Source: Escherichia phage IME08. From it: a DNA stretch of 64,000 nt. The stretch lies in the sequence record NC_014260.1; one strand, written 5' to 3'. Position numbers and translations under genes: made by a program. Of the stretch, positions 1 through 10,863 are shown piece after piece. The notes beneath the pieces are model-generated. The model saw nothing but the letters and a program-made list of their open reading frames with translations, searched no databases and was not told the origin of the DNA. Position 1 is the first letter of the stretch, and every line of letters begins with the position of its first letter.

Positions 1-243
1 AACTTAAATTTCGGCAACGTAAGTGTTATGCAATTCCCACATATCATTGGAATTACTCTCAACGATAGGAATTATCTCATTAGAAATTTCTTCTGCATAA
101 GGGTCATTGATACAGTGAGCATCTTCAAAACGAACACCGTAATCAGACTTCTTATAAGCAAAGCCATAAATCTTTTTAAACTTGGCACGAGTAATGCGTA
201 CCGGTTCATTAGACTTATCGGACATCGGAGCGTAATACCACAT
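1..243 (-). CDS. hypothetical early protein, 3' end beyond window start
   Basis: ATG at 243 preceded by leader ...caaacatgaggagaacat; reading frame still open at position 1. Confidence 0.45.
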
Positions 244-270
244 ATGTTCTCCTCATGTTTGTGTAGGGTA

Positions 271-300
271 ATAGTAACACGTATTTTTAGAGTTGTACAT
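271..300 (-). promoter_or_regulatory. early-type promoter-like element, weak -35
   Basis: TACTATTA -10 as at 60625; leader about 90 percent identical to 60597..60660. Confidence 0.35.
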
Positions 301-616
301 CACTTCTGCAATATTCTAAAAATAATTTATCGTTGTCTACCGTATCCCAACGACGCCAAGATGGATTCCAGACCAGAGCGTTGTCACCACAATCATTGAG
401 CTTAAAATGGTCGTAGTACATAGCTATACGTCTAGTTTCGTCACCAGAGAACCCCAGTATAGGCTCGCCATGGGTGTGATACATATGATGGTGCATTGAG
501 AGGTCGCATTTGTAAAACATCTCACGTTTACCACGAACGAACAAGAAGGCTTGCCCATTCATATAGAATTCTTTATCTGTTTTCAAAAGATATTTGAATA
601 CTGAATCTTTATGCAT
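287..616 (-). CDS. hypothetical His-rich protein (HHHMYHTHGEP)
   Basis: ORF track 287..637; internal ATG at 616 has SD aggagga. Confidence 0.45.
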   Translation of the reverse strand: MHKDSVFKYLLKTDKEFYMNGQAFLFVRGKREMFYKCDLSMHHHMYHTHGEPILGFSGDETRRIAMYYDHFKLNDCGDNALVWNPSWRRWDTVDNDKLFLEYCRSDVQL

Positions 617-646
617 AAGTCCTCCTACCACATCCATGTGGTTAAA

Positions 647-874
647 TTATTTTCCTAACGAAACACGAGTAGGTTTTTTACCAAAATAGTCTTCGTAAGA
701 ACCATCTAAACGGCCTGCTTTAGACCGACAATACGAATCATACTTTTTGTAATAAGTCATCTCGGTATTATAACGTGGGTGTCTATCAGCCATAATAATA
801 CTTAGTGGCCAACCTTTGGCATAATCGCGAAGACCGTTTATTTTACGAATGTATCGTTTTTTCAATTTTAGCAT
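647..874 (-). CDS. hypothetical basic protein
   Basis: ORF track; ATG overlaps the Ser-Cys-stop codons of the upstream gene. Confidence 0.45.
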   Translation of the reverse strand: MLKLKKRYIRKINGLRDYAKGWPLSIIMADRHPRYNTEMTYYKKYDSYCRSKAGRLDGSYEDYFGKKPTRVSLGK

Positions 875-1092
875 GAGCTTGGGTACCAGATTTTACCATC
901 GGATCGAGCAACGAAGGTGCGACCAGCTTCTTCACCATAACAAGAGCTATTCAGCCAATCTTCGAGACGAACTTCACCGTCATAATCATCGAGCTCAACA
1001 CCAAAATCCTGAGCAGAAGCCATATCTTTTACTTTCTTATACAGTGCAGCCAGTTCAAGTGCCGCTTTTTCTAATTCATTAATATCAGTCAT
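868..1092 (-). CDS. small acidic protein, C-terminal WYPSSC; paralog family member
   Basis: ORF track 868..1221; start moved to internal ATG at 1092; shares C-terminal tail with 4 neighbours. Confidence 0.5.
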   Translation of the reverse strand: MTDINELEKAALELAALYKKVKDMASAQDFGVELDDYDGEVRLEDWLNSSCYGEEAGRTFVARSDGKIWYPSSC

Positions 1093-1102
1093 TTTTATCA
1101 CC

Positions 1103-1312
1103 TTAGCAAGACATAGAGGAGCTAAACCAGAAACCTTCACCTTCAGGAATACCGTAGTCATCACGGACCCATTCGTAATCATCATATTCCGGACTAGAAG
1201 CTGGAATATATTCTTCGCCACCAGCGTGGAAGTGCTGACCTGTTTCGTCAGCCACAGACTGGCCTTTACGTACTAATTCACGGATTTGTTTTTCAATTTC
1301 ATCAATAGTCAT
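1103..1312 (-). CDS. small acidic protein, C-terminal WFSSSMSC; paralog family member
   Basis: ORF track; conserved C-terminal tail; stop codon sits in SD of next gene. Confidence 0.55.
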   Translation of the reverse strand: MTIDEIEKQIRELVRKGQSVADETGQHFHAGGEEYIPASSPEYDDYEWVRDDYGIPEGEGFWFSSSMSC

Positions 1313-1321
1313 TTTATTTCC

Positions 1322-1519
1322 TTAGCATTCGTAAGAGGAGGACACCCAAGAGGTACCACTAATAGTAATACAACCGTTATAAAGCGTGATATGTCGTTCT
1401 AGGTCACGAACACCATCGATATAGATATCGGCTTCTTCGCGTTCTTCTTTACAAATCTGGATAACGTTTTCAATAGCTGCGGCTGCAGTACGGATTGCAC
1501 AATCTAATTCACGAGACAT
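1322..1519 (-). CDS. small acidic protein, C-terminal WVSSSYEC; paralog family member
   Basis: ORF track; conserved C-terminal tail. Confidence 0.55.
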   Translation of the reverse strand: MSRELDCAIRTAAAAIENVIQICKEEREEADIYIDGVRDLERHITLYNGCITISGTSWVSSSYEC

Positions 1520-1528
1520 AATAATTCC

Positions 1529-1810
1529 TTAACATTCAGAAGAAGAGGACACCCAACCACCATTTTCCAGGTCAGTTGTATAGTCATGAGTATTAACAAT
1601 AGCCCATTCAGGATGACCATCTTCTTCCCAGTGGGCCAGGTCAGCTTTCAGGGCGCCAGGAGAATAATAGTCACCGCCCATACCGCGAGCAGGGTATATA
1701 TTAAAATGAGTCTCATATTTGTCTGCAATTTCCTCAGCACGACGAATAGCTTCATGGATTTCTTTTACTGCGGCCAGAAGCTCCGGGTTGTTATGGTTAT
1801 CATTCATCAT
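1529..1810 (-). CDS. small acidic protein, C-terminal WVSSSSEC; paralog family member
   Basis: ORF track; conserved C-terminal tail; IADKY motif shared with 1820..2110. Confidence 0.55.
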   Translation of the reverse strand: MMNDNHNNPELLAAVKEIHEAIRRAEEIADKYETHFNIYPARGMGGDYYSPGALKADLAHWEEDGHPEWAIVNTHDYTTDLENGGWVSSSSEC

Positions 1811-1819
1811 AGCGTTTCC

Positions 1820-2110
1820 TTAGCACATTGCTGAAGAGGAGACCCAAGCACCAACTGTAACGACGCCGTTTTCAACTTCACCGCCGTTGTTTTCAATTTC
1901 ATCTTTAAACCACTGGGAGCATTCATAACCGACAGGATAATATGTACGGCCTGAACCATAATCACCGGTACCGAATTGGATACCATACTTATCGGCAATA
2001 GCTTCACATTCATGTTCGATGGTATTCACTTTATTCAGAAGAGCATAGATAGCCTTTTCTGCAGATTTCTCATCGTTGTGTTCTGGGATTTCGATTTCAA
2101 TTTTATTCAT
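1820..2110 (-). CDS. small acidic protein, C-terminal WVSSSAMC; paralog family member
   Basis: ORF track; C-terminal codons checked on DNA. Confidence 0.55.
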   Translation of the reverse strand: MNKIEIEIPEHNDEKSAEKAIYALLNKVNTIEHECEAIADKYGIQFGTGDYGSGRTYYPVGYECSQWFKDEIENNGGEVENGVVTVGAWVSSSAMC

Positions 2111-2460
2111 GATTTACATTCCTTAATAAAGATTTCAAGGTCATTACGTTTAGTTTGTTTTACATGCTCATTATAATTAGCCATCTCTAAAGCATATCTC
2201 TTACGGATGGGAGCATTCAAAGCGTTTGTATGGCAAATATCATACACAACAGGGATAAAATAAGCCACGACAGCCGGAGCGATTATCATATAAAAACCCA
2301 TCTCAATAGGCGTGACTCCTTCGATTGCCGCCATAACCGTGGTCATTACCAGACCAACCAAACCTCCTAGCATACCGGTGACAATTCCCATAAATAAGGA
2401 AATAGCAATATCATATTCAGCCAATTGATAAACATGTGATGAAAGACTAGGCCGTTCCAT
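2107..2460 (-). CDS. small membrane protein, 2 predicted TM helices
   Basis: ORF track 2107..2634; internal ATG at 2460 with SD aagagg; hydrophobic stretches GIVTGMLGGLVGLVMTTVMAAI and FYMIIAPAVVAYFIPVV. Confidence 0.5.
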   Translation of the reverse strand: MERPSLSSHVYQLAEYDIAISLFMGIVTGMLGGLVGLVMTTVMAAIEGVTPIEMGFYMIIAPAVVAYFIPVVYDICHTNALNAPIRKRYALEMANYNEHVKQTKRNDLEIFIKECKS

Positions 2461-2989
2461 TTTGAACCTCTTTAGCGTATTCGCGACATTCAGCAATAAA
2501 ACGATTAAGCTTCCGTTGTTGTTTTCGAATCTCTGATGTATACTCATTAGCCAAAATAATAAGCTCATCTTTATCGTAATTTTTAATATCCGAATAACTC
2601 GGGCGGCGGTCGACCATACCAAAGTGGTCACCATTTTCTAACATCAAATAGCATACTAAATGGTAATCATCGTCAGCATCAACAAGCTGTTTACAATCAC
2701 TTGGTTCATTTAAAGCGTATACTGAATAGCATAATCCAGCGAATTCCACTCGTTGAATACCCAGATTTACGTCAATAATTTCTAAAGCTTCTGCAAAAGA
2801 AAGGTCTTCAGCTAAAGCGAAGATAAAGGGCAATTTGGTAGTGTGTCCATGGCTACTTGTTCGACTTAAGAAATCATTGGAATAACCTAGGTCTTGGCGA
2901 ATTCTATAAAGAACTGCATTAGTTTCATGGGAAAGACCGCTATGTTTAAACCAATCAATATTTGATATCAGGTCATCATATAAACTCAT
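2447..2989 (-). CDS. hypothetical early protein
   Basis: ORF track; ATG at 2989 preceded by SD ggaggagag. Confidence 0.5.
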   Translation of the reverse strand: MSLYDDLISNIDWFKHSGLSHETNAVLYRIRQDLGYSNDFLSRTSSHGHTTKLPFIFALAEDLSFAEALEIIDVNLGIQRVEFAGLCYSVYALNEPSDCKQLVDADDDYHLVCYLMLENGDHFGMVDRRPSYSDIKNYDKDELIILANEYTSEIRKQQRKLNRFIAECREYAKEVQNGTA

Positions 2990-3012
2990 AATATTCTCCT
3001 CTCCTCCAAATA

Positions 3013-3030
3013 GGGAGACCGAAGTCTCCC
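3013..3030 (-). terminator. stem-loop GGGAGAC-UUCG-GUCUCCC
   Basis: Perfect 7-bp stem after 3038..3631; same hairpin at 40558. Confidence 0.5.
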
Positions 3031-3037
3031 GGTAACA

Positions 3038-3631
3038 TTACTTAAGTGAATTAATGTAGTCGTCGATATCAGCAGAAGTCGTATCCATTCCAACCTGTGG
3101 GCCTTTAAACGTTTCTACACGCAGCAGGGTATCTTCAATATCAATCTTAGTCAGTGCAGCGATTTCAACAACATCATCGGCAGTAGCAATACCAAGGGCA
3201 GCCATATTACGAGTTTCACGGATGTACTCGAGCTTAACAGCCAGTTCCTGACGAGAGTCATCAAGTTCCTTGACCTTCAGTTTAATTTCATTACGCATTT
3301 CGATATAATCATCGGCTTTCTTACGAAGCTGAGTAGCCGTACGACGATAAAGGAGGCCGAGTTTAGCATGTACCTGGACATCAGCGCCTTCGGCAATCAG
3401 TTTACGAATTTCACGTTCTTTAGAAGCAGCAAGCTGGTCTTTTTCATTAGCCAACGCACGAATACGTTTTTCTTCATTCACAGACTTAACATGAGCAGTC
3501 TGGAGTTCAGTGATTTTATCAATCAGGGTAGAAGCAGCTTTAGTATACTGGTCTTCGATTGACAGGTTCTGAGCCATTGCAGTACCCAGTTTAGAACGGA
3601 TGAATTCAACGATTTTCTTTAAAGTGTTCAT
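3038..3631 (-). CDS. coiled-coil protein
   Basis: ORF track; heptad-rich K/E/R sequence; GTTTAC-N18-TATAAT promoter upstream. Confidence 0.5.
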
Positions 3632-3673
3632 AGTATTTCCTTCAGTTGGTTAAGATTTATAATCCATGAGGAC

Positions 3674-3703
3674 ATTATACCCTGTCCTCTGAGGGATGTA
3701 AAC
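3674..3703 (-). promoter_or_regulatory. early-type promoter GTTTAC-N18-TATAAT
   Basis: Read on minus strand upstream of 3038..3631. Confidence 0.6.
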
Positions 3704-3706
3704 ATT

Positions 3707-4105
3707 TTATTTCATTTTTGCGAGGCAGATTTCATTGGCTTCCCATTGAGCTTGCTTAATAATAGCTTTGGATACAGGAGCCCTTTGGCCATAAGTTTTT
3801 GACGTTGAGAGAACAATATATTTGTTTGTCTCATTATGCCAGCCCCATGATTTTTCGCCATGGGTACCTTTAACTACAGCTGACACCTCAACAGAGCAAC
3901 CACCATCAGAAATCTTGGTTTCGACAATCCATTCATTTCTTTCGGCGGCTTCAAGTTCTAATCTAGTTTTTTCTTCATACATGGCAGCCCAATCAGTTTT
4001 TGCCAAGTTGAAAGTGAGAGCTTTCTCTAATTCTTTGGCAGCTTTTTGTTGTTCAGGCGTTAATGAATTGTACAACTCTTGCATTTCTTTATCTTCGATA
4101 TTCAT
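3707..4105 (-). CDS. hypothetical early protein
   Basis: ORF track; early-type promoter upstream. Confidence 0.5.
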   Translation of the reverse strand: MNIEDKEMQELYNSLTPEQQKAAKELEKALTFNLAKTDWAAMYEEKTRLELEAAERNEWIVETKISDGGCSVEVSAVVKGTHGEKSWGWHNETNKYIVLSTSKTYGQRAPVSKAIIKQAQWEANEICLAKMK

Positions 4106-4130
4106 TATGTTCTCCTCAAATTATGGGCTC

Positions 4131-4160
4131 ATAATATCTTAATCATGAGCCCATGTAAAC
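4131..4160 (-). promoter_or_regulatory. early-type promoter GTTTAC-N18-TATTAT within palindrome atgggctcat/atgagcccat
   Basis: Upstream of 3707..4105. Confidence 0.5.
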
Positions 4161-4162
4161 AA

Positions 4163-4426
4163 TTATTTCATATTATTGAAATACTCTTCCGCATCAAAAT
4201 CGTTATCATGATAAACTTTGGTAGACAATTTAACATAACCTTCGGCGGCAAACATATTAACCACAACCTTTACAGTATACCACTGTCCGTCATCATTACC
4301 CATTACTGCGTAAGTTTCAAATATAGGATGGTCATCACCTATAACCTTAATATCGTTAACAGTAGCACCAAATTCTTCAGGAACGCATTTCATAAAGAAA
4401 TTAAACAATTCACCATAATTATCCAT
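4163..4426 (-). CDS. hypothetical early protein
   Basis: ORF track start 4441 is GTG; ATG at 4426 has SD aaggagag. Confidence 0.5.
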   Translation of the reverse strand: MDNYGELFNFFMKCVPEEFGATVNDIKVIGDDHPIFETYAVMGNDDGQWYTVKVVVNMFAAEGYVKLSTKVYHDNDFDAEEYFNNMK

Positions 4427-4461
4427 TTTACTCTCCTTCACTCTGTTGTTTTGATAGGTCT

Positions 4462-4490
4462 ATAGTATCATGTTTAAAGGAGGTGTAAAC
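4462..4490 (-). promoter_or_regulatory. early-type promoter GTTTAC-N17-TACTAT
   Basis: Upstream of 4163..4426. Confidence 0.5.
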
Positions 4491-4524
4491 AACTTTGTGA
4501 AATTATTTTTAGTCTAAACCCCCA

Positions 4525-4546
4525 AAAGGAGACCGAAGTCTCCTTT
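4525..4546 (-). terminator. rho-independent terminator (GGAGAC-UUCG-GUCUCC + U run)
   Basis: Directly after IPIII-like stop. Confidence 0.65.
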
Positions 4547-4548
4547 CA

Positions 4549-5166
4549 TTATTTACGGGTCTTTTCGAACTGGGCCGCGTCACCAGCCAGACGACGAGCT
4601 TGACGAAGTTTGTTGTCGATTTCTTCGCGCATAGGCTGGGTATACTTAAGGCCTTCAACCGTCAGATAGAGGCGATAAAGGTCTGGGGTGTCTAGGTTGT
4701 TAATGTGCTGTCCGTTACGAAGAGTATTGAATTCACGAACAAGGTGTTTAGTTTCGGATTCGATTTCAGAAACCAAAGAAGCCAGTTGATTATATTTTTT
4801 AACTATAGTGCTGGTGTCAAACTTGATTTTAGGTTTAGGAGCTTCTTTTACCGGTTCGGCTTTAGGCGTCGGTTTCGGCGCTGCAACTTTGGCCTGGGCT
4901 GCAGGTTTAGCAACAGGAGCTTTAGCTGGTTTAGCAGGCTTAGTAGCGCCGCCAGCTACGATATCTTTAAAAGCTTTAGAAGCTTTGTAATATTCTTTCT
5001 GGTTACTAGTATCAAAACCATACATATCATAAACGTTTTTAAAGAATTCGGTGGTGGTTTTAGTCCCAGAAATTTTATCATAAGCCGCTTGCCACATATC
5101 TTTAGTCATGCGGACGCCGGCTTCGGTCAGAACGCTTTCGTTCAAAAATTCATTGTAAGTTTTCAT
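4549..5166 (-). CDS. internal head protein, IPIII-like, with capsid targeting sequence [10 protein letters not shown]
   Basis: N-terminus matches T4 CTS MKTYQEFIAE; basic Ala/Lys/Pro-rich core; minus-strand TATAAATA upstream. Confidence 0.7.
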   Translation of the reverse strand: MKTYNEFLNESVLTEAGVRMTKDMWQAAYDKISGTKTTTEFFKNVYDMYGFDTSNQKEYYKASKAFKDIVAGGATKPAKPAKAPVAKPAAQAKVAAPKPTPKAEPVKEAPKPKIKFDTSTIVKKYNQLASLVSEIESETKHLVREFNTLRNGQHINNLDTPDLYRLYLTVEGLKYTQPMREEIDNKLRQARRLAGDAAQFEKTRK

Positions 5167-5194
5167 TATTGTTTCCTGTGTTAATTAACTTATC

Positions 5195-5202
5195 TATTTA
5201 TA
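5195..5202 (-). promoter_or_regulatory. late promoter TATAAATA
   Basis: Exact octamer about 29 nt upstream of IPIII-like start. Confidence 0.6.
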
Positions 5203-5203
5203 C

Positions 5204-5234
5204 AAAAAAGGCCCAACCTTTCGGAAGGGCCTTT
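5204..5234 (-). terminator. rho-independent terminator after tRNA cluster
   Basis: ggccc...gggcc stem flanked by A6 and T3; same 25-nt sequence at 51611. Confidence 0.7.
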
Positions 5235-5400
5235 AACCTAGGGTAACCTTGTCGGGGTTCCACCTGCTAGGCAAGTGTTCGGTGCGCCGTTTCGGCTGTG
5301 AGATAAGGGACTTTAAGAGGAACTCATGTACGCCTTAAAGTCGGGTCTTATTCAGGGAACTTCAGTCCGACGACTTACCGGTAGCGACCCGGTTTCTTGT
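5232..5400 (-). ncRNA. candidate structured stable RNA next to tRNA cluster
   Basis: No ORF; nested stems (cgggtc...gacccg; ccgg...ccgg); sits between tRNAs and the strong terminator, where T4 has small stable RNAs. Confidence 0.3.
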
Positions 5401-5401
5401 T

Positions 5402-5477
5402 TGGCCGAGACAGTAGGGATCGAACCTACGACCCAGGACTTAGAAGGTCCTTGCTCTTCCTTCTGAGCTATGCCTCG
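5402..5477 (-). tRNA. tRNA-Arg (anticodon UCU)
   Basis: Hand-folded cloverleaf: 7-bp acceptor, 4-bp D stem, 5-bp anticodon stem, loop CTTCTAA, T loop TTCGATC, encoded CCA. Confidence 0.8.
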
Positions 5478-5481
5478 TATT

Positions 5482-5556
5482 TGGCGGACATGCATGGATT
5501 CGAACCATGGACCAATTGATTAACAGTCAACTGCTCTACCACTGAGCTACACATCC
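5482..5556 (-). tRNA. tRNA-Asn (anticodon GUU)
   Basis: Hand-folded cloverleaf: acceptor GGATGTG/CATGTCC, loop CTGTTAA, T loop TTCGAAT, encoded CCA. Confidence 0.8.
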
Positions 5557-5560
5557 AAAT

Positions 5561-5634
5561 TGGTGGCCCTGGGTGGAATCGAACCACCATCCAGCGATTA
5601 TGAGTCGCTCGCTTGACCGTCCAGCTACAGGGCC
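5561..5634 (-). tRNA. tRNA-Met (anticodon CAU; could be Ile2 if lysidinylated)
   Basis: Hand-folded cloverleaf: acceptor GGCCCTG/CAGGGCC, anticodon loop CTCATAA, T loop TTCGATT, encoded CCA. Confidence 0.75.
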
Positions 5635-5719
5635 TTAATTCTATTATGAAAGGCTCTTTGAGGGAAGAACCTTTGGTAATAGAGGGTATTAATGATAGAG
5701 TAATAATATCACATAATTC

Positions 5720-6004
5720 TTAAAGCATATTAATGTAATCAAGTTTAATAGAAGCAATCTTCAAAGGATTTTTAAAGATGTCGTATTCGACCAATCCATT
5801 TTCAGTTGCGGTATAAAAAGTAAAGTTAACAGAATTATAACGATGGCTGTTAACTTTGAGCTTAACATCGCTTGAACTACGTCCTATATTAACCTGTTGA
5901 ACATCAAGAACAGCATCTTTGCCATAATTGCGAATCAACAACTCAGCTGCAACCTGATCGGATTTATAGCCATTCTCTGGATTAGTAACCTTAACGTATA
6001 GCAT
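5720..6004 (-). CDS. hypothetical early protein
   Basis: ORF track. Confidence 0.5.
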   Translation of the reverse strand: MLYVKVTNPENGYKSDQVAAELLIRNYGKDAVLDVQQVNIGRSSSDVKLKVNSHRYNSVNFTFYTATENGLVEYDIFKNPLKIASIKLDYINML

Positions 6005-6406
6005 TTAACCCTCGTCTACAATTGTGTGGGTATTGGCATTAACAATCTGCCACCAGTCAAAACGATTAGAACCGTAACAAGGCTTATTCTCGTTATCTTT
6101 AATGATATTACGTAGTTCATCTTCAGTAGCAGCTTTTGCGATTAAGTCAGTGTATCCACCACGTGGATAATAGTTGTCACCGGCGAACAAAAGGAAATTT
6201 ACCTTTCCAGAAGGAATATATGCTTCCTTAGGATACTTGTTTCCTGCATGGTCTACCACTTCAATATAACGATAAGGGATATCAGTACTTTCAACCCATT
6301 GCCAAGCTGCAGCAGGAGAGTCAAAAGCATCAACACCTAAACGGTTATCTTCATCTTTAGACGGGTTATTTTCATAATCCGCATATACATAATATTCAAC
6401 GTTCAT
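6005..6406 (-). CDS. hypothetical early protein
   Basis: ORF track; directly follows upstream gene. Confidence 0.5.
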   Translation of the reverse strand: MNVEYYVYADYENNPSKDEDNRLGVDAFDSPAAAWQWVESTDIPYRYIEVVDHAGNKYPKEAYIPSGKVNFLLFAGDNYYPRGGYTDLIAKAATEDELRNIIKDNENKPCYGSNRFDWWQIVNANTHTIVDEG

Positions 6407-6591
6407 TATTCACCTTTAGAGATTTTATCCATTACGAAAGAGATTGAACCAATTAAAAATGCCACTACTAAAGAGATTATATTCTCGGAAGTTGAAAGCA
6501 TATCGAGCATGAATCCTGCAAACATACTAAAGCCAAAAGCAGTAACGGCTGCCAGTGCAGTAACATTTCTAATTAATTCACAACGTTTCAT
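6406..6591 (-). CDS. small membrane protein, 2 predicted TM helices
   Basis: ORF track start 6603 is TTG; ATG at 6591 with SD ggag; hydrophobic segments. Confidence 0.5.
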   Translation of the reverse strand: MKRCELIRNVTALAAVTAFGFSMFAGFMLDMLSTSENIISLVVAFLIGSISFVMDKISKGE

Positions 6592-7237: not shown

Positions 7238-8121
<884 letters not shown>

Positions 8122-8129
<8 letters not shown>

Positions 8130-8883
8130 TTTTATTTCCTAATAATTTATCAATAGTAGTGTATAGTTCAGAAAGAGTGCCGTTATTTTCAACAACAACG
8201 TCACCAGGTAAAATTGGCAGACCCGCTTCAGTGATGTGCGAGTCTTGTACTTGACCGGTTTCAGAGCGAACTACATGAATAATCGTAGCACCCATCGCTC
8301 TGAGCGAATCAATTTCATGTGTTTGACGAACATCAGGTACGACATAGTATTTCGCATCAGAGTATATTTTATCAAAATAGTCTAAAGCGAACAACTTAAC
8401 CCAATACATCTTATCAAATTGGTTAACAATAATATCAGTCCCAAGGGTCTGCATGAGACGACGTACTGACCAATTGTTATTTTTATTTATTACTTCAAAC
8501 AGTTGGTCTTTTGTTTCTTCAGACAGATACTGGACTGGGGTAAGACCATAATGATATGCGGTACGAACATCAATTCCTGGAATAGGAAGGATATTATTCA
8601 GTTTGACAATAGCATTTTCAAAGATATCAATAACATCATATGGTTTTAAAGGAATGATTTCTTCACGGTCGTAACCGATACCTTCAAAACAGTTAAAATC
8701 GAGTTTAGGCATATAACTACGGTCGAATACAGGGTCATCAGAGATGTATTCATAGGCTTCAGCCAGATACTTTTTAATAGGACCCGCGAGCTGAAATTTT
8801 ACCGAATCCATATTTTCGATTACATAGTTAGCAACGGTATCCTTACCGCTACGTTTGATTCCTACAATTGATATTAGTTTCAT
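8122..8883 (-). CDS. 1: gp1 deoxynucleoside monophosphate kinase
   Basis: P-loop KRSGKDT; VRRLMQ.LGTD, MYWVKLFALDY and ATIIHVVR motifs match T4 gp1. Confidence 0.9.
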
Positions 8884-9473
8884 TATTTTCTCATAGATGG
8901 ATGCATAGACATACGAGCCACACGTTGTTCAGCGTACGAATCAATTTGTGGACGACCTGTAACTATTGTACCATCTATTTCTACAGCAAACGATTTGAAG
9001 TTGAATGTTGCGGTAGCGATTATCGCAGGGTCAGAATCTTCTTTATATGAATACTGGATTTCCGAGAGGTCGGATGGCCAACCACCGTAGTAATGAATGC
9101 TCATTACGATTTTCTGTTTGTTATTATCAAGAATATGGAGCGTAATTGCTTCAGGTAAGCCTTTAGGATGCCAAGCTTCGGATTCATGGGTTACGTAGTT
9201 GTTTAATGACAACATCCACTTATAAACGTCAAGCCATGATTTCAATTCACGGTCTACAAGAAAGTTCACGATCAATGGGTCGAATTCTACAGTAGAACCT
9301 GGCAGCTTAGCACGATGTATGCCCTGGGTCGATCCTGGGACGTCTGAGATCGGAATATGGATACCAGGTAGTGTTACATCTTGTACGTTCAATTTGAATG
9401 ACTGTGTCATTCCTGAGTCACTAACCTCTAAGATAAAGTTGGTGGTGTTAGTTTGGTTAAATAAACCGTTCAT
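8883..9473 (-). CDS. 3: gp3 tail completion / sheath stabiliser (start uncertain, 9473 or 9410)
   Basis: Position between 1 and 2; ORF track 8883..9635 overlaps gp2; ATG at 9473 has SD agga; ATG at 9410 gives T4-like 175 aa. Confidence 0.6.
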   Translation of the reverse strand: MNGLFNQTNTTNFILEVSDSGMTQSFKLNVQDVTLPGIHIPISDVPGSTQGIHRAKLPGSTVEFDPLIVNFLVDRELKSWLDVYKWMLSLNNYVTHESEAWHPKGLPEAITLHILDNNKQKIVMSIHYYGGWPSDLSEIQYSYKEDSDPAIIATATFNFKSFAVEIDGTIVTGRPQIDSYAEQRVARMSMHPSMRK

Positions 9474-9555
9474 AAGGTTCCTATATTGCTTAAGTCCCAG
9501 ACAGTGTATAATGGTCCTAGGTCTGTTCCATTCAATAACTGGCTGGGATAATAGA

Positions 9556-10383
9556 TTATGAATTCTTCCATACTTTCTGAGCTGAGTAACGCTTGCCTTT
9601 AGACATGAATTGCTGAAGTGGAAGCATGACCACATTAGCCCAATCAGATGGTTTTATCTCTACTAAAGGTCCCTTGATATTTCCAGGGATATAAGCCTTA
9701 ATCATCACGTCGGCTCCGGCGAATCCTTTTACCTTGCTCCAATCGATTTTTAATTTAGTCGAGTTCGTAATGGTAGGCGTACTCGCGTATTGCTTCAGCA
9801 ATTCTTCCAGAAATTGTTGTCGTGCTTTAGGCGGGATATAGTGTAAGTTCAGCCCGTACATTAAATTATGCTTACCTAACCCAAGATAAATGATTAAAGG
9901 ATATTTGTCCCAATACGGTAGGGTATCCTTGTGCTTGGCGTCATAGATATAAGCATAAAGCTTACCGGGAGATGGTTTAGATACCTGGTGTCCACGAATT
10001 CCTTTCTTTAATGTTTCTGTAAACCATTTAGCTGATTTATTGTTTACAGCAGCGCCTTCGTTAGCAATCTTATCACGAATACTCTTTCTAAAACTATTCA
10101 CCAAAATTAATTGACGTTCGGCTTTGGTTAATTTATTGCCAGGTTTATTCTGAAGTTTTTCAACCTGTACAGCAGTTTTAATTCGACTCGAGTATCGAGA
10201 CATCGCAGATGTAAAGCTAGAATACTTAATGCCTTTATCTTCAGCAAATTTCTTAGCCGAGACACCTTTAGCCTTAGCTTTAGCGTATTCAACACCTAAT
10301 GCTATCCATTGTTGTTCTGAACGGGTAGGCTTGGAACCCTTTGTGGTTTCAGTAGCCTCATTGATGTAGGAAAATATACTCAT
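9556..10383 (-). CDS. 2: gp2 DNA end protector
   Basis: Position; start placed at the ATGA overlap with gp4 stop, giving 275 aa vs T4 274 aa. Confidence 0.7.
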
Positions 10384-10829
10384 CCTTTCCATCCTAATTT
10401 TTTCAGTGAATGTTCGGTAATCAATCTAAAGGTGATACCCATTTTATCTGCTGTAGCTTTAGCTGCTTTCCACTTATCGGTATTAACAGACCAAGTATAG
10501 TGTTCGTTGATATATCTCTTTTTAGCAGCCGTAGTCATTTTAACAGGCGCCGCAGGAGCATGGGTTTCTTTAAAAGGTTTGACTTCAAAAAAGAATTGTT
10601 GACCTGTATCAAATTTAACCCAGAAGTCCATAAAATATCGTCTTTTCTTTCCTTCGGCATTGCAAAAGTATGGAATCACCACCTCTTCTGAATTCCACTG
10701 GACTACATTAGGATGGTTGTCAAGCCAACGCATAAACCATGCTTCCCAAGAGGAACGATATTGGATTTTCTTCCAGTCACCTTTATATTTTTGTAAGTTT
10801 GTAGGTTTAAATTTCCCTGAGTAAGCCAT
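10380..10829 (-). CDS. 4: gp4 head completion protein
   Basis: 149 aa vs T4 150 aa; position; minus-strand TATAAATA upstream. Confidence 0.75.
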
Positions 10830-10840
10830 AGTCGCCTCCT

Positions 10841-10863
10841 TATAAATATTAATATTATTTATA
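10841..10863. promoter_or_regulatory. divergent late promoters (TATAAATA on + for 53, on - for 4)
   Basis: Exact octamers on both strands in the 4/53 intergenic region. Confidence 0.65.

Follow-up and report, generated by a model that had tools for sequence, protein, structure and literature searches.

Nucleotidyltransferases of the polymerase beta (Pol-beta) type that combine a helical C-terminal lobe with a small partner protein are described in the MenA1-MenT1/AbiEi-AbiEii (DUF1814) systems, where MenT1, a tRNA nucleotidyltransferase toxin of Mycobacterium tuberculosis that extends tRNA acceptor ends (PMC10435456), is neutralised by MenA1, a short protein acting at the MenT1 active-site region (PMC10435456; PMC11375011). 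Here we describe a locus of Escherichia phage IME08 (sequence record NC_014260.1) of similar make-up: five tandem minus-strand genes at positions 868-2110 of the 64,000-nucleotide stretch analysed (hereafter, the window), whose small acidic products share a C-terminal tail closed by cysteine, and, downstream of them, the gene of a larger putative nucleotidyltransferase with the domains DUF7277 and DUF7275. The locus differs from the MenA1-MenT1 and AbiEi-AbiEii pairs in being phage-borne, in having one to six copies of the small gene, all with a terminal Cys motif, and in its lack of DUF1814 membership. MenA and AbiEi proteins, to our knowledge, have no invariant C-terminal Cys motif. In GlnD-PII and MntA-HepT, too, the target of a Pol-beta-fold enzyme is a hydroxyl on a small partner protein, and the C-terminal metal-dependent (HD) domain of GlnD recalls the His/Asp-rich DUF7275; the acceptors there are tyrosines in loops, however, rather than a Ser-Ser-x-x-Cys C-terminus, no homology was detected, and modification of the phage tail is put forward here as a hypothesis. 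The acidic DNA mimics Ocr, ArdA and Arn are likewise small acidic proteins of early-type operons, but no fold shared with them was found, and we know of no invariant terminal motif or conserved enzyme partner among DNA mimics.

The proteins of the locus belong to catalogued families, PHROG 899 and PHROG 4882 for the small ones and PHROG 2141 or DUF7277 plus DUF7275 for the large one, all listed as of "unknown function". Full-text searches found no paper for phrog_899, DUF7275 or DUF7277, and the literature on phage nucleotidyltransferases with tRNA or a C-terminal cysteine yielded nothing relevant. The two families are without an assigned function or a solved structure, no paper on either was found, nor did the tail motif or the linkage of the genes turn up in print, and there is a real chance that the chemistry of the Cys tail is new. 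On balance we lean towards the view that the five genes are tandem paralogs encoding cognate small partners of the downstream DUF7277/DUF7275 enzyme, with the tail as their shared handle. That T4-like, rV5-like and jumbo phages, Otagovirus and a Myxococcus phage all have this strictly conserved two-gene module speaks for an activity general to phages. As a handle, an invariant terminal Cys after a pair of invariant Ser is unusual and easy to mutate, which makes the hypothesis directly testable.

A tandem array of five acidic paralogs

A check of the open reading frames (ORFs) of the window found all five minus-strand ORFs, of 65-96 residues each, head-to-tail within 868-2110, and the calls and translations bear out the coordinates and C-termini given in the original prediction, which had been made from the letters of the DNA and had also proposed a profile search and structure prediction. 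E-values below refer to PHROG profiles and to a hidden Markov model (HMM) of the family, and pLDDT is the predicted local distance difference test of AlphaFold2 (AF2).

1820-2110, minus strand: paralog 1, 96 residues, ending AWVSSSAMC; its start codon shares the sequence ATGA with the stop of the e.4-like membrane-protein gene upstream; phrog_899 E 1.4e-23, family HMM E 1.6e-24, AF2 pLDDT 92.5
1529-1810, minus strand: paralog 2, 93 residues, ending GWVSSSSEC; phrog_899 E 3.4e-19, family HMM E 4.4e-26
1322-1519, minus strand: paralog 3, 65 residues, ending SWVSSSYEC; phrog_4882 E 2.4e-36, family HMM E 8.9e-6
1103-1312, minus strand: paralog 4, 69 residues, ending FWFSSSMSC; phrog_899 E 2.2e-13, family HMM E 8.9e-18
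868-1092, minus strand: paralog 5, 74 residues, ending IWYPSSC (short, with a 0-residue Ser-Cys spacer); phrog_899 E 4.9e-10

Enterobacteria phage vB_EcoM_IME341 (MH051917), a JS98-like member of Dhakavirus in the Tevenvirinae, matches the stretch at 100% identity, and the GenBank record carries all five paralogs as hypothetical coding sequences. Paralog 5 corresponds to the annotated coding sequence at 6269-6493 of locus L002, the ATG at 1092 being the GenBank start, and its orthologues (P0024, P0027, P0032, P0035, P0042) were retrieved by the paralog profile. Paralogs 1, 2, 4 and 5 match PHROG 899 and paralog 3, which has the most divergent body of the five and is without the YG-G-Y segment described below, matches PHROG 4882. 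The acidity claimed for the proteins is seen in all five, with computed isoelectric points (pI) of 4.20-4.59 and 12-18 Asp plus Glu versus 5-8 Lys plus Arg. No named T4 counterpart came to light, as the original prediction had also found; relatives carry the array in the e-to-tRNA region, between e.4-like and e.2-like hypothetical genes.

The tail is conserved at the protein level, since its Ser codons vary between the copies, as had been noted at the outset (TCC TCT TCA, TCC TCT TCT, TCC TCC TCT, AGC TCC TCT and AGC TCA), AGC occurring as well as TCN codons. The genes are tightly packed, evidently as one operon, and their four junctions read TGC-TAA-GGAAACGCT-ATG, TGT-TAA-GGAATTATT-ATG, TGC-TAA-GGAAATAAA-ATG and TGC-TAA-GGTGATAAAA-ATG, so that each stop is embedded in the ribosome-binding region of the next gene (TGY-TAA-GGA, 7-9 nucleotides, ATG), as had been claimed; the ORF that follows the array begins within the last Ser-Cys codons of paralog 5 (TC-ATG-C-TAA). 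Exactly these five of the 389 ORFs of at least 35 residues in the 64-kb window match the tail pattern, and the same tail recurs in hundreds of homologues; the pattern is not due to chance.

An invariant tail on divergent bodies

A profile of the paralogs and their close homologues, searched against 1.84 billion representative proteins at E <=0.001, collected 390 clusters at 50% identity, nearly all of 70-140 residues, with matches that extend to the last residue. The five genes thus belong to a true paralogous family, as predicted, and the family is one of widespread, phage-restricted acidic alpha/beta proteins (median pI 4.46); Dhakavirus and Gaprivervirus alike keep the paralog sets as orthologous groups. 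Only noise was obtained with the small proteins in Pfam, NCBIfam and PADLOC, and the longer family members (116-153 residues) have no recognisable additional domain.

Tail statistics were taken from the 150 best representatives, of mutual identity <=50%. The last residue is Cys in 140 of these and Cys is penultimate in six more, whereas the remaining four, apparently truncated, are the only ones without the tail, homologues lacking it being what the original prediction had named as evidence against itself. Among the 140 Cys-ending members, 136 have Trp at position -7 relative to the Cys, and in these Trp-bearing proteins Ser-4 is found in 136/136 and Ser-3 in 135/136, while position -5 is Ser, Ala or Pro. 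The tail as we define it, G-x-W-x-[SAP]-S-S-x-x-C-COOH, is carried by all five paralogs, in paralog 5 with the 0-residue spacer. The family also conserves an N-terminal helix that closes with I-A-D, a Phe and, in the small sheet, a Y-G-(M)-G-G-x-Y segment; no part of the proteins is as constrained as the C-terminus, with its terminal Cys and the Ser at -4 and -3, which fits the earlier suggestion of a shared recognition or modification site.

For the 96-residue paralog AF2 gave a confident fold (pLDDT 92.5), with a helix at residues 14-42, a small sheet, a second helix at 66-74 and a last strand that bears the Trp; the helical N-terminal part expected from the sequence is accordingly present, with the small beta-sheet after it. 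The tail itself is modelled, less confidently (pLDDT about 79), as a short helix. Foldseek with this model found no solved relative in the PDB (best E 0.77) and no DNA mimic among the matches, and in BFVD it found uncharacterised family members only, e.g., RB69ORF139c and PHG31ORF064c.

Other accounts of the tail were considered and rejected. Its conservation as a by-product of overlap with the Shine-Dalgarno sequence of the next gene is ruled out by the use of TCN versus AGC codons and by its persistence in unrelated phages where what lies downstream is different; a role in a Zn ribbon or disulfide, by the terminal Cys being the sole Cys in 89 of the 150 representatives; and a ubiquitin-like or sulfur-carrier protein, by the missing Gly-Gly end and PDB fold match.

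The motif is doubled in paralog 5 (868-1092, minus strand), where an internal DWLNSSC precedes the terminal IWYPSSC, and many members (P0171, P0170, P0174, P0152) have a second internal copy, as in NWWSSSS...EWISSSHSC. To judge from these repeats, the C-terminal half of the family may be a degenerate duplication of a W-x-S-S unit.

Linkage to a conserved downstream gene

Downstream of the small gene in three unrelated phages, IME341, Pseudomonas Otagovirus PN09 and Myxococcus Mx1, lies an ORF of about 310-320 residues whose products are 39-49% identical among the three. At the present locus the genes between the array and its left-hand neighbour, and that neighbour itself, are as follows.

647-874, 287-637 and 4-243, minus strand: three unrelated small ORFs separating the array from the nucleotidyltransferase-like gene
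Start about 16 bp past the left edge of the window (L002 4426-5385, that is, MH051917 111521-112480), minus strand: nucleotidyltransferase-like gene, product AWD92081.1

The large protein was used to fetch 79 viral loci, which were scanned with the family HMM over 10 kb either side, and the 92 enzyme-holding loci in all were sorted into 55 lineage groups at 80% enzyme identity. At 78 of the 92 loci the enzyme gene is preceded, on its own strand, by at least one member of the small family, and at a single locus a member follows it; 44 of the 55 lineage groups have an upstream member, with a median gap of 342 bp and one to six members per locus. When neighbours were clustered over the lineage groups, the enzyme was present in 55/55, the small family in 45/55 and the next most frequent family in 11/55. 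These co-occurrence counts are underestimates, because the HMM misses a divergent subfamily at L062, a jumbo-phage contig on which five tandem ORFs ending in FW[VI]PSSM[ES]C (8099-9645) lie directly upstream of the enzyme gene; tail-bearing ORFs that had not been scored in the first count were recognised by eye at L044, L058, L062, L092 and L094. The reverse test gave the enzyme downstream on the same strand in 10/10 loci not fetched by the enzyme query, six of them reached via a small-protein match and four via the window DNA or a first tblastn; they include phAPEC8, the Acinetobacter phages AbTZA1 and AB-Navy97, the jumbo phages Hallingskeid, XbC2 and fENko-Kae01, PN09, Mx1 and SP18. The linkage spans T4-like, rV5-like and jumbo phages, Otagovirus and Myxococcus Mx1, and on this conservation of gene order the small family and the enzyme form a two-gene module.

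The module is essentially confined to phages. A search of 50,697 deposited phage genomes found the enzyme in 724, and the enzyme has more than 2,000 database relatives. Among 185,579 bacterial species genomes, a pattern scan that reaches close relatives only found it on five contigs of metagenome-assembled genomes, which are probably phage sequence in the bins, and the same scan gave no sign of a cellular origin of the module.

The gene is also found apart from the array. In Karamvirus CC31 (L098 3517-5915; also L023) it follows a cluster of eight tRNA genes, with one unrelated ORF of 113 residues in between, and no Cys-tailed gene was found at the locus, a lineage that has apparently lost the small partner. 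Shorter DUF7275/DUF7277 homologues of about 250 residues occur, with no Cys-tailed neighbour, in Streptomyces phage Annadreamy, Gordonia phage ClubL and Vibrio phage Va3; they are flanked by ORFs of about 100 residues (L095 5666-6001, L096 4630-4917, L097 4327-4620) that are 29-34% identical and have in common a C-terminal segment, ...GY-DS...VEV-P-x-x-(V/I)T-x-Y. Judging by this shared segment, these ORFs may be a second small-partner family.

Signature and fold of the large protein

The large protein, of about 319 residues, matches PHROG 2141 and two Pfam domains, DUF7277, its putative Pol-beta-type nucleotidyltransferase head, and DUF7275, which is helical. Across 39 sequences, with identities as low as 43%, five of its residues (G5, S6, D24, D26, E68) are invariant, and the G-S...D-x-D...E pattern that they form is the signature of Pol-beta nucleotidyltransferases, which makes this the putative activity. 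Also invariant in the same sequences, in the helical domain, are K124, H127, H173, D192-H193-D194, H197, C242 and C271. Whereas searches of the PDB with the sequence, single or as a profile, returned nothing relevant, the AF2 model (pLDDT 91.8) has one Foldseek match in the PDB below E 0.05, and this is MenT1 (8an4_A; E 8.8e-3, probability 1.00, 185 columns).

An RNA ligase and Pnk are encoded just upstream of the module in three jumbo phages (L086, L087, L088) and an RNA ligase upstream in Streptomyces phage Annadreamy, while every Tevenvirinae locus, and about seven unrelated loci besides, have a cluster of tRNA genes within 10 kb. This RNA-end context was counted without a base-rate control and is suggestive only; taken with the fold match, the RNA-ligase, Pnk and tRNA neighbours suggest that the module acts on RNA or tRNA ends.

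Genes that recur near the module, at L086, L087, L088, L084 and L004, further include those of a Ser/Thr metallophosphatase (10/55 lineage groups), a macro-domain protein (10/55) and a DNA ligase (11/55); together with the RNA ligase and Pnk they may make up an RNA-repair or ADP-ribose theme, with no base-rate control behind it. Just downstream of the enzyme gene at L093, a contig binned as Thermosynechococcus and probably phage, a permuted tmRNA-like gene (ARAGORN; 10547-10862) lies by a cluster of 12 tRNA genes.

A proposed partnership

The simplest reading of an invariant tail at the extreme C-terminus of divergent bodies, in paralog sets that are kept and linked to one enzyme, is that the tail is a handle and the bodies carry specificities. 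From this we infer a physical interaction between the two proteins and a role in it for the tail, and from the signature and fold the enzyme's activity and its target, for which RNA or tRNA 3' ends are the leading candidate. In the arrangement that we propose, the tail would enter the catalytic cleft of the enzyme as a common handle, anchored through the thiol and free carboxylate of the terminal Cys, probably at a metal, be it in the active site or at the His/Cys cluster of DUF7275, and the two invariant Ser hydroxyls would be placed where an acceptor hydroxyl or phosphate would otherwise be, while the divergent bodies of the paralogs would give different specificities. The tail might then be nucleotidylylated, making the small proteins an acceptor substrate; it might block or tune the enzyme, in the manner of an antitoxin-like regulator; or it might act as an adaptor that recruits the enzyme to different targets. 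We rate these three outcomes about equally and cannot separate them.

The first can be put in a stronger form. Because Pol-beta-fold enzymes transfer nucleotides to hydroxyls, the invariant Ser-Ser would be a natural acceptor or a mimic of one, and the enzyme could covalently place a nucleotide or short nucleotide chain on the Ser-Ser-x-x-Cys tail, with the paralogs as a multi-acceptor phage "carrier" set. We regard this specific form as possible though rather doubtful; were it true, the modified proteins might serve as a decoy or sponge for host immunity based on nucleotides, or might work at RNA 3' ends. In a more exotic variant, the Ser-O-linked nucleoside monophosphate would be eliminated and the terminal Cys would close a thioether ring.

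Several observations weigh against a partnership of this kind. At the present locus the array is linked to the enzyme gene but not adjacent to it, three unrelated ORFs intervening, and the homologues with no Cys-tailed neighbour in CC31 and in Streptomyces, Gordonia and Vibrio phages mean that the enzyme can exist without such a partner. A simple antitoxin would be unusual in having from one to six paralogs per enzyme, and Ser-Ser and the terminal Cys are 0 to 3 residues apart depending on the subfamily, which argues against a chemistry that requires a fixed ring size. The profile that collected the homologues contained the tail, which introduces some bias into the tail counts; even so, it retrieved matches with no tail, at E 1e-12 and 1e-7. 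Similarity to MenT1 is modest, with a template modelling score of 0.32 on the query and 0.48 on the target, and no DUF1814/AbiEii match was obtained for the large protein in Pfam, where it matches DUF7277 and DUF7275 only, or in PADLOC (E up to 1); we therefore call the protein MenT-like in fold and organisation and not a member of that family.

Alternative readings

MenT1 being the enzyme's sole structural match, itself neutralised by the short protein MenA1 (PMC10435456; PMC11375011), and the small genes lying upstream on the same strand, the pair could be a strict toxin-antitoxin one, with the enzyme as a toxin of the MenT/AbiEii type, adding to tRNA 3' ends, and the small proteins as inhibitors only, which would time its activity or limit it. 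We think this unlikely. An antitoxin is not expected to come in one to six paralogs per enzyme, each maintained as an orthologous group of its own; intervening ORFs are frequent (three here, with the 342-bp median gap overall); the enzyme, at 43-50% identity between phages of E. coli, Pseudomonas and Myxococcus, is far more conserved than typical phage toxins; and the resemblance does not extend to a DUF1814 sequence match or to a solved structure similar to the small protein.

Improbable, too, is a stand-alone role for the small proteins in host takeover or anti-defence, as DNA or RNA mimics or inhibitors of host enzymes, with the synteny reflecting a shared accessory region. Their size and acidity (pI 4.2-4.6; family median as given above), their pre-replicative-looking operon within a variable accessory region of T4-like genomes and the fast divergence of the paralog bodies, like that of arms-race genes, would all suit such a role. 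A shared island does not explain, however, why unrelated phage groups whose surrounding genes are wholly different have the small genes in the same order and on the same strand with respect to the enzyme, and neither similarity to solved structures, known mimics included, nor a PADLOC, Pfam or NCBIfam match was found. The anti-defence or DNA-mimic idea voiced in the original prediction drew no support from any result, acidity being its sole basis.

It is very improbable that the proteins are precursors of ribosomally synthesized and post-translationally modified peptides, with the C-terminal octapeptide as a core that is modified (Ser activation and a thioether or aminovinyl-cysteine (AviCys)-type ring with the terminal Cys) and released, since, for all that tandem short genes stand upstream of one enzyme with a conserved motif at the extreme C-terminus and that the S-x-x-C-COOH spacing of 136/140 members is the one seen in AviCys-forming peptides, AF2 predicts a folded domain (pLDDT 92.5) rather than an unstructured precursor, the proteins' conserved and variable parts are reversed relative to most such precursors, the 55 lineage groups have no protease, transporter, dehydratase or LanD-type flavoprotein among their conserved neighbours, and the Ser-Cys spacing varies between subfamilies, paralog 5 included.

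Operon surroundings and expression

Upstream of the array, on the same strand, the window holds three further genes.

2107-2460, minus strand: e.4-like predicted membrane protein, PHROG 2330, function unknown
2447-2989, minus strand: 180-residue protein, PHROG 8788, function unknown
3038-3631, minus strand: e.6-like coiled-coil protein of 197 residues, PHROG 1203, function unknown

No minus-strand terminator-like site was found in 1-6000, which makes a single transcription unit with the enzyme gene likely, and the late promoter TATAAATA was not found on the minus strand in 1-4600. A pattern search identified, by consensus match only, a site like the T4 middle promoters at 2170-2196 (minus strand), with the MotA box ATATGCTTTA, a 12-nucleotide spacer and TATAAT; it lies about 60 bp upstream of paralog 1, within the 3' end of the gene for the e.4-like membrane protein. 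Pre-replicative expression of the array and the enzyme gene as one unit is plausible on these motifs, and the description of the proteins as "early" in the original prediction is plausible to the same extent, the promoter-like motifs being all that speaks for it. Strong sigma-70-like sites lie farther upstream of the array, at 3702-3674 and 4159-4131.

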